From the NCBI RefSeq assembly GCF_003334255.1, contig NZ_QOWU01000089.1: a stretch of DNA of 9,306 nt, one strand, 5' to 3'. Source of the stretch: Escherichia coli (GTDB taxonomy: Bacteria; Pseudomonadota; Gammaproteobacteria; Enterobacterales; Enterobacteriaceae). The notes under the pieces were generated by a model. It had not been told where the DNA came from, ran no database searches, and saw only the letters and a program-made list of their open reading frames with translations. This document shows positions 8,414-9,232 of the stretch, piece after piece (the stretch's first letter is position 1; each line of letters begins with the position of its first letter). The translations under genes were made by a program, and so were the position numbers.

Positions 8414-8745
8414 TTATACAGGCCAGTTGATGGATCGATTGTTATCAATGATATCTTTATGAGTCGGTGTCTCACCCAGCTTACCGAAGCTGGCATAAAG
8501 TGAAGGCAGACGGGCCCGTCCTTCTCCCTTTTTCGCCAGAGGGAAAGCGCGAAGCATGGTGGCAGCCTCCCAGTCACAACAATAGGATGGTGTGCACGGC
8601 TGCTGACGCCATGATTCAGCGATAGAGCCGGAAAATACGGGGTCAAAGCCGGTATCATTAACCAGAGTCATCGTGACCTGTACTGCGGCTGGATGATCTC
8701 CTGCTACTGCAACTGCTAGGCGACCGCGGCTCCCTTCAGGTAGTC
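8414..8745 (-). pseudogene. N-terminally truncated ORF of unknown function abutting the IS3-family element end (about 110 codons of native sequence; frame stays open into the IS terminal repeat)
   Basis: Minus-strand frame ...LPEGSRGRLAVAVAGDHPAAVQVTMTLVNDTGFDPVFSGSIAESWRQQPCTPSYCCDWEAATMLRAFPLAKKGEGRARLPSLYASFGKLGETPTHKDIIDNNRSINWPV-stop (stop at complement 8414-8416). The track ORF 8414-8827 begins with a Met inside the IS end, so the native 5' part appears to have been replaced by the insertion. I do not recognise a family. Confidence 0.35.
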
Positions 8746-9232
8746 TGTTGTGGTCAACTAAAACTGGCCTCCGCGTTAGAGTTTTTCCAGTATCGGTTTT
8801 CTGATTCGTTTGGTGGTAACCCACCATTATATTCGTGCGGTCTTAGTGCGCTGTAATATCCAACGATATAGTCCGTTATTGCGTGAGCTGCATCGCTGAA
8901 GCTTACATAGCCCGTCGCTGGCACCCATTCGTTCTTCAGACTCCTGAAGAAGCGCTCCATTGGGCTGTTATCCCAGCAGTTTCCACGCCGACTCATACTC
9001 TGCCTGATCCGGTATCGCCACAGTAACTGCCGGAACTGCCTGCTCGTATAATGACTGCCTTGATCGCCTGGAACATCACCCCGACGGGCTTACCACGGGT
9101 TTCCCATGCCATTTCCAGTGCTTTCATGGTAAGCCTGCTGTCCGGCGAGAACGACATGGCTCAGCCCACTGGTTTTCTTGCGAACAGGTCGAGAACAACG
9201 GCGAGGTACGCCCAGCGCTTACCCGTCCAGAG
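8746..9232 (-). mobile_element. IS3-family (IS911-like) insertion sequence remnant: one terminal repeat plus the 3' two-thirds of orfB; the 5' part of the element (orfA and the orfB N-terminus) is absent
   Basis: TGTTGTGGTCAACTAAAACTGGCC... at 8746 onward resembles the IS911 terminal repeat as I recall it (TGAAGTGGTCAACAAAAACTGGCC..., imperfect match), with the orfB stop inside it. Minus-strand translation gives IS3-family integrase-core motifs. Homology stops near 9232. Confidence 0.8.
8754..9232 (-). pseudogene. insO: IS3-family (IS911 OrfB-like) DDE transposase pseudogene: N-terminal truncation, nonsense codon and frameshift
   Basis: The minus strand reads WTGKRWAYLAVVLDLFARKPVG[34 protein letters not shown], then after a frame change [25 protein letters not shown] joined to the track [27 protein letters not shown]...[32 protein letters not shown] at complement 9161-9163 replaces the conserved Trp of the IS3-family VGW motif. 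A 1-nt frame change near 9066-9071 disrupts the conserved HSDxG(S/Q)xY motif. No frame continues upstream of about 9232. The symbol follows E. coli K-12 naming for IS911 orfB and is given from memory. Confidence 0.75.

Follow-up and report, generated by a model that had tools for sequence, protein, structure and literature searches.

Open reading frame 8414-8827 beside the fec genes of Escherichia coli: the known pseudogene yjhV, very probably a remnant of an oxidoreductase gene broken by an IS911-associated rearrangement

Among the annotated pseudogenes of Escherichia coli K-12 MG1655, yjhV (b4286) is a stretch of 330 nt which starts 2 nt after IS911B-1 and lies convergent with fecE. In E. 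coli pan-genome studies it has been listed as a 'phage-like protein', as a 'virulence gene' or as a feature in GWAS and machine-learning (ML) analyses, and in the yjhV literature it appears, always alongside the fec genes, as a 'virulence-associated gene', as a mastitis-associated hit in a pan-genome study and as a doubling-time feature in ML. Under the locus tag b4286, no relevant paper was found in the literature. Genomic SELEX in vitro has placed an RpoD holoenzyme site, with the motif CTGTCA-16-TATAAA, between insM and yjhV (PMC3946193), and a cross-linking MS (XL-MS) preprint lists a single YjhV-AceF cross-link. The insertion sequence (IS) beside the pseudogene belongs to the IS3 family, in which many ends carry outward promoters (PMC12095673), and the -35 element of the IS911 right inverted repeat (IRR) forms a junction promoter (pjunc) with the -10 of the left repeat (IRL) after circularisation (PMC9330008). 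In the present study, we analysed a stretch of 9,306 nt of E. coli DNA (the window), in which a sequence-only reading had singled out a minus-strand open reading frame (ORF) at 8414-8827 as an orphan, either the rest of an unknown gene or an IS-driven chimeric frame.

The ORF is the known and ordinary E. coli pseudogene yjhV, which is already catalogued, and the terms 'unknown' and 'orphan' did not hold for it, since yjhV is annotated in K-12 and is of the NAD(P)-binding F420_oxidored/COG2085 kind. According to the ORF listing and the annotation, the window carries fecI, fecR, fecA, fecB, fecC, fecD and fecE on the plus strand at 311-7856; fecE is followed by a short mosaic spacer, then by the yjhV ORF and then by an IS3-family fragment. 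Positions 1-9231 are 99.7% identical to K-12 MG1655 and positions 7900-9306 are 99.9% identical to many wild strains, and the remnant itself shows 99.4% DNA identity to K-12 strains, with translations that differ at 1 residue. Codon 8428-8430 (minus strand) reads Lys in the window (THKDII) and Glu in K-12 and in most of the database alleles (THEDII). In other strains, PGAP calls a shorter CDS at 8414..8671, of 85 aa (WP_000177060.1), under the name 'NAD(P)-binding domain-containing protein' or 'hypothetical protein'. We consider, with a probability of about 93%, that the ORF is a dead gene remnant of an oxidoreductase gene which was broken by an IS911-associated rearrangement. Against this reading stand the frame that is intact in most carriers, the RpoD SELEX site, the YjhV-AceF cross-link and the 85-aa CDS called by PGAP.

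In the ORF listing of the window, the minus-strand ORF 8414..8827 has 137 codons with an ATG start, and its translation contains the peptide PCTPSYCCDWE as described by the sequence-only reading. The yjhV pseudogene proper occupies 8414..8743 (minus strand) and corresponds to codons 140-248, with the stop codon, of a gene of 248 codons for an NAD(P)-binding oxidoreductase, as judged from the K-12 annotation of b4286, the 99.4% identity to K-12 and the 78% amino acid identity to P0037, a protein cluster of Pantoea agglomerans. The native part of the ORF, 8743..8414, thus amounts to 109 codons and a stop, in agreement with the earlier count of about 110. Next to it, positions 8744..8745 (minus strand) are the 2 bases left of the split codon 139 (GGA in Raoultella), the DNA alignment with the Raoultella terrigena locus L003 beginning at window 8745. 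The breakpoint lies between 8746 and 8745: by the K-12 annotation and alignment, the last base of IS911B-1 maps to window 8746, and the IS-free locus of R. terrigena aligns from 8745 downward and not a base further. The statement that the frame stays open across the IS boundary at about 8746 was therefore correct, and the boundary can be set at 8746|8745. The remaining part, 8746..8827 (minus strand), is from a reading of that strand an IS-derived 5' extension of 27 codons and 1 nt, which is out of frame with orfB and overlaps its last 24 codons; in the protein alignment, these 27 residues have no counterpart in the full-length homologues. The open frame reaches 33 codons into the 3' end of IS911 orfB, with ATG 8827 within. 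Because chance alone gives 28 codons in a row without a stop in about 26% of cases, the 27 IS-derived codons are an unremarkable open run inside the 3' end of orfB. The first Met had been placed inside the terminal repeat of the IS, which proved wrong. ATG 8827 lies within the 3' coding part of orfB, 82 nt from the IS tip, and it is outside the inverted repeat because the similarity of IRL and IRR fades after about 36-40 bp.

The K-12 feature IS911B-1, the comparison of IRL and IRR and the PGAP annotation identify the sequence at 8746..9231 (minus strand) as a fragment from the right end of IS911, a member of the IS3 family; it has the IRR tip TGTTGTGGTCAAC and contains the 3' part of orfB, which is frameshifted. 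PGAP describes it as 'IS3 family transposase; frameshifted; incomplete; missing N-terminus'. The stop codon TGA of orfB is at 8756-8754, and the right end shows the TG...CA termini and the imperfect terminal inverted repeats (IRL TGAAGTGGCACACTGAATTTGGCC versus IRR TGTTGTGGTCAACTAAAACTGGCC). Neither an intact orfA/orfB transposase nor a 3-bp target duplication was found for 8746..9231, and this fragment is a dead IS piece. A group II intron breaks into it at 9231|9232; K-12 is without this intron, and its homology to the window ends at 9231. The last 75 nt of the window, 9232-9306 (minus strand), are the 3' end of the intron (domains V-VI), which continues beyond the window and sits in the orfB remnant of IS911, on the same strand as this remnant. 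In a matching strain (L001 7333-7419) the intron is recognised by Rfam RF00029 with 64.9 bits, and ltrA lies just past the window end; for the window as a whole, Rfam found no family that reached the gathering score.

The 137-aa ORF alone gave no significant match with Pfam and NCBIfam, and because of this the assignment to a family required full-length homologues. A word-indexed protein search with the ORF returned mainly E. coli fragments of varied called lengths. A metagenomic protein (P0007) extends upstream and ends at the same C-terminus, ...NNRSINWPV, and a protein of R. terrigena (P0032) has the N-terminal Rossmann start MKIGIIGTGNIGG running into ...LPEGSRGRLAIAVAGDHPAAVQVTMSLVNDTGFDPVFSG. 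For the full-length reconstruction, residues 1-139 of P0032 were joined to the 109 residues of the window, and this sequence was searched against the full set of 1.84 billion cluster representatives, each standing for a cluster at 50% identity, of which 171 matched at E<=1e-30 and 3,542 at E<=0.001. P0037, with exactly 248 aa, aligned from 1-248 to 1-248 of the reconstruction (E 2e-133), and the native 109 aa alone aligned with its residues 141-248 at 78% identity (E 1e-66). At the DNA level, the R. terrigena locus L003 is 85% identical from 8230 to exactly 8745. The proposal that a gene had lost its N-terminus at the IS was correct, as the search for a full-length homologue found proteins of 248 aa at IS-free loci, and the window retains residues 140-248. 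With 171 representatives at E<=1e-30, the 248-aa subfamily is widespread and apparently unstudied. The R. terrigena copy (GCA_901420665.1, L003 8416-8752) differs from the E. coli, Pantoea and metagenome sequences by three single-base indels, which split the gene into calls of 181 aa and 47 aa and represent either an assembly error or an independent pseudogene.

The P0037 cluster, of Pantoea agglomerans, bears the name 'NADPH-dependent F420 reductase / NAD(P)-binding domain-containing protein / predicted dinucleotide-binding enzyme', and its gene is carried on large plasmids of Pantoea. The reconstruction matches PF03807 (F420_oxidored) over residues 2-93 (E 1.6e-18), precomputed Pfam results list PF03807 for P0032 and for genes in the loci L003-L009, and the sequence matches of the reconstruction also include PDB 4huj, the STEAP3 oxidoreductase domain and FNO. 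In the protein alignments, the retained part is collinear with full-length proteins that carry PF03807. The N-terminal GxGxxG Rossmann domain is absent from the ORF, which has no PF03807 match, and residues 2-93 are deleted here. The window therefore contains a fragment of an F420_oxidored (PF03807/COG2085) member and not a functional member, because the defining Rossmann domain is absent. The use of F420 is unlikely in enterobacteria. The 'Cys-rich patch' of the sequence-only reading aligns with a family motif of consensus SWRxQPGTPxYC, in which Tyr-Cys is widely conserved; in the alignments the extra cysteines occur in the closest relatives only, and the patch is a partly conserved family motif. 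In other Enterobacterales, and in every context retrieved (L003 7531-8546; L004-L009), the intact or near-intact homologues pair divergently with an HxlR-family regulator, which is about 100 bp away. This pairing suggests a conserved regulator-reductase module, possibly electrophile/quinone-responsive, and a role of the electrophile/quinone type may be supposed for the intact ancestor.

The AlphaFold (AF2) model of P0037, obtained from a 30-sequence alignment with a pLDDT of 96.4, places six of the eight strands and the nucleotide-binding helix in residues 1-139, and predicts for residues 140-248 the strands 148-154 and 173-176 and five helices. In Foldseek, the top matches of this model were 4huj, 2vns and 5n2i (E 4e-15 to 5e-11; TM to target 0.67-0.82), and the intact homologue is predicted to have an FNO/STEAP-like fold. 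In the 248-aa subfamily, the SWRxQPGTPxYC motif is followed by three C-terminal helices (model residues 183-248). Judging from the model, the remnant would not be able to perform the ancestral oxidoreductase reaction and would not be that enzyme, because the lost 139 residues hold the GxGxxG site and six of the eight strands, and an NADP(H)-dependent redox activity of the remnant appears structurally implausible.

The coding history of the frame was examined against the Pantoea, metagenomic and Raoultella homologues, with which dN/dS is 0.05-0.14. When these were taken as outgroups, the E. coli branch showed 8 synonymous and 3 non-synonymous changes, the Lys for Glu at 8428-8430 (minus strand) being one of the three, and no frame disruption; these changes are few and recent. 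The low dN/dS is found together with an intact E. coli branch, so most of the divergence predates the truncation, after which visible decay has had too little time to build up. The remnant is carried by 2,686 of the 5,426 complete E. coli genomes, with at least 99% identity in 2,573 of 2,688 matching records and with the same IS junction in 2,578 genomes. The frame is intact in most of the approximately 2,600 carriers and gives no positive sign of decay, which fits a recent truncation, and occasional alleles are frameshifted (P0009, P0014, P0017, P0021, P0034). The remnant is not a companion of fec on plasmids of Klebsiella and Enterobacter: only 12 plasmid records, of the E. coli type, carry it, and the abundant Klebsiella matches are those of an 80-nt ISKpn21-like scrap and not of the remnant.

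We propose that the ancestral gene, of 248 codons, would have encoded a cytoplasmic oxidoreductase which depends on NAD(P)H and is of the FNO/STEAP-like kind (F420_oxidored, COG2085), and that this gene was probably broken at codon 139 by an IS911-associated rearrangement, either by insertion and then adjacent deletion or by recombination between IS copies. What would have survived is the final 109 codons with about 185 bp of 3' flank, as a passive passenger beside fecE in the mosaic fec island, and the remnant would presumably be without function. The 137-codon ORF arises because the frame of the remnant, by chance, meets no stop over 33 codons of the 3' end of IS911 orfB, where an ATG occurs. 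The native 3' flank of the oxidoreductase gene, kept with the remnant, is at 8230..8413 (minus strand; about 185 bp), as the alignment to Raoultella L003 at 85% identity runs beyond the stop codon to about 8230. Just past this flank there is a terminator-like hairpin at 8220-8204 (minus strand), CGCTCTGGCACAGAGCG, then a T-run. Also between fecE and the remnant, 8006-8080 (minus strand) encodes a 25-aa scrap, FKIDCRDHDWFESRAQACTALVCVD, of an ISNCY/ISKpn21-like transposase, with about 80% DNA identity to the ISKpn21 that is found on many Klebsiella plasmids. The spacer between fecE and yjhV is a patchwork of debris.

Another explanation is that the IS drives the production of a chimeric protein (137 aa, from ATG 8827) or a truncated one (85 aa, from ATG 8671) with an acquired role, in which transcription would come out of the IS911 fragment or read through across it and the product would be a C-terminal alpha/beta unit with a three-helix tail. 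We regard this as improbable. Most carriers have the ORF in open, intact form, and an outward -35, TTGACC, in the IS911 IRR at 8757-8752 (minus strand) faces the remnant and is the element known from the junction promoter (PMC9330008). The outward promoters at many IS3-family ends (PMC12095673), the RpoD SELEX site upstream of yjhV in K-12 (PMC3946193) and the naming of YjhV in one XL-MS listing are in the same direction. However, the hexamers 16-18 bp downstream of the IRR -35 are AGGGAG, GGGAGC and GGAGCC, so that there is no -10 partner in the flank, and the promoter/terminator consensus scan of 7850-9306 gave no promoter near the junction; its only promoter-like site, at 8475-8448 (minus strand), is inside the remnant and is no more than shuffles give. 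A perfect -10, TATAAT, at 8831-8826 (minus strand) overlaps ATG 8827, but it lacks a -35 and would set the transcription start downstream of this ATG. No Shine-Dalgarno sequence was found before ATG 8827, and before ATG 8671 there is only a weak CAGG. Moreover, the window does not contain CTGTCA-N16-TATAAA, the motif published as the yjhV promoter. Its K-12 copy corresponds to window-equivalent 9329-9356, about 590 nt upstream and inside the IS, and in the window strain the group II intron at 9231|9232 separates this position from the remnant. Frameshifted yjhV alleles are tolerated, and according to the model the fragment would be without the cofactor site and most of the sheet against which it normally packs. 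The suggestion that the IS end supplies a start and a promoter for a chimeric product gained no support, with no Shine-Dalgarno sequence, no -10 and no promoter in the scan. The TATAAT at 8831-8826 and the TTGACC at 8757-8752 are two half-promoters, which a single point mutation might complete. Slightly more doubtful still is the proposal that the remnant (85-137 aa; two strands, five helices and the SWRxQPCTPxYCC patch) is translated and kept as a small protein with a new fec-linked role, which, if true, would explain the intact frame in about 2,600 genomes and the appearance in in-vivo cross-linking.

It is very improbable that IS911 simply inserted into the intact gene and that the 5' half is still present across the IS, even if the breakpoint falls, to the base, at the tip of the IS. 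The N-terminal 139 residues gave no tblastn match in the window nor in the 13-16 kb around the locus in two strains (L001, L002), and the 5' half with hxlR of Raoultella gave no match in the 5,426 complete E. coli genomes at the sensitivity of blastn. In K-12, IS911B borders on yjhE at its other (left) end, and the bases which flank the two IS911B ends are GGC versus GAC, without a 3-bp target duplication. Given that neither the locus nor the complete genomes contain the 5' half and that a target duplication is lacking, a simple insertion is excluded, and an insertion with the 5' half retained is refuted for the genomes searched; the loss may be attributed to an IS-associated deletion or to inter-IS recombination. 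That the ORF is a chance frame without coding history has next to no probability, for although many shadow ORFs of >100 aa occur elsewhere in this GC-rich window and the ORF alone has no significant Pfam/NCBIfam match, it is refuted by full-length homologues at E 1e-66, by the 3,542 cluster representatives matching the reconstruction at E<=0.001 and by the dN/dS of 0.05-0.14 in this frame.

With the ORF taken as a remnant of the broken oxidoreductase gene, the associations of yjhV with traits most likely reflect linkage to fecIRABCDE, because yjhV would be a hitch-hiking 3' fragment that is physically linked to these genes. In the present study, we added to the catalogued pseudogene its parentage, an HxlR-linked FNO/STEAP-like oxidoreductase, together with the exact breakpoint and the population picture, and the closest intact relatives among those found are in Raoultella and Pantoea. 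The value of these results is mainly in the clean-up of the yjhV annotation, and new biology is not implied. The exact breakpoint and the Raoultella and Pantoea relatives also provide one datable scar in the history of the mosaic fec island.

Compared with the known systems, the likeness to the hybrid and outward promoters and fusion ORFs of IS elements is that the IRR -35 faces the remnant and an ATG internal to the IS is in frame; the window differs in having no -10 partner and no Shine-Dalgarno sequence, and the resemblance is anatomical only. Among solved structures, SMa0349 (4huj), the oxidoreductase domain of human STEAP3 (2vns) and the F420:NADPH oxidoreductase (5n2i, 1jay) have the same fold as that predicted for the intact homologue, with detectable sequence similarity, but their identity to P0037 is just 24-28%; 4huj shares 206 alignment columns with P0037, and the last ~40 residues of the 248-aa subfamily are beyond these. 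As the nearest solved structure, 4huj belongs to a protein which is itself uncharacterised. The 248-aa protein of Pantoea agglomerans (WP_010246753.1, P0037 cluster) and its counterpart in R. terrigena are closer, as their C-terminal 109 residues are collinear with the remnant to the last residue (…NNRxINWPV), and they share with the window 78% amino acid identity, 85% DNA identity and the WRxQPCTPxYCCDWE patch. Their genes have the full length, the PF03807 Rossmann domain and a divergent HxlR regulator, whereas the window is without all three. The closest system is yjhV (b4286) of K-12 MG1655 itself, in the KpLE2 region between IS911B-1 and fecE: IS911 continues upstream in K-12, whereas its fragment in the window strain is broken at 9231|9232 by the group II intron, and the window has the same locus, the same breakpoint and the same 330 nt.
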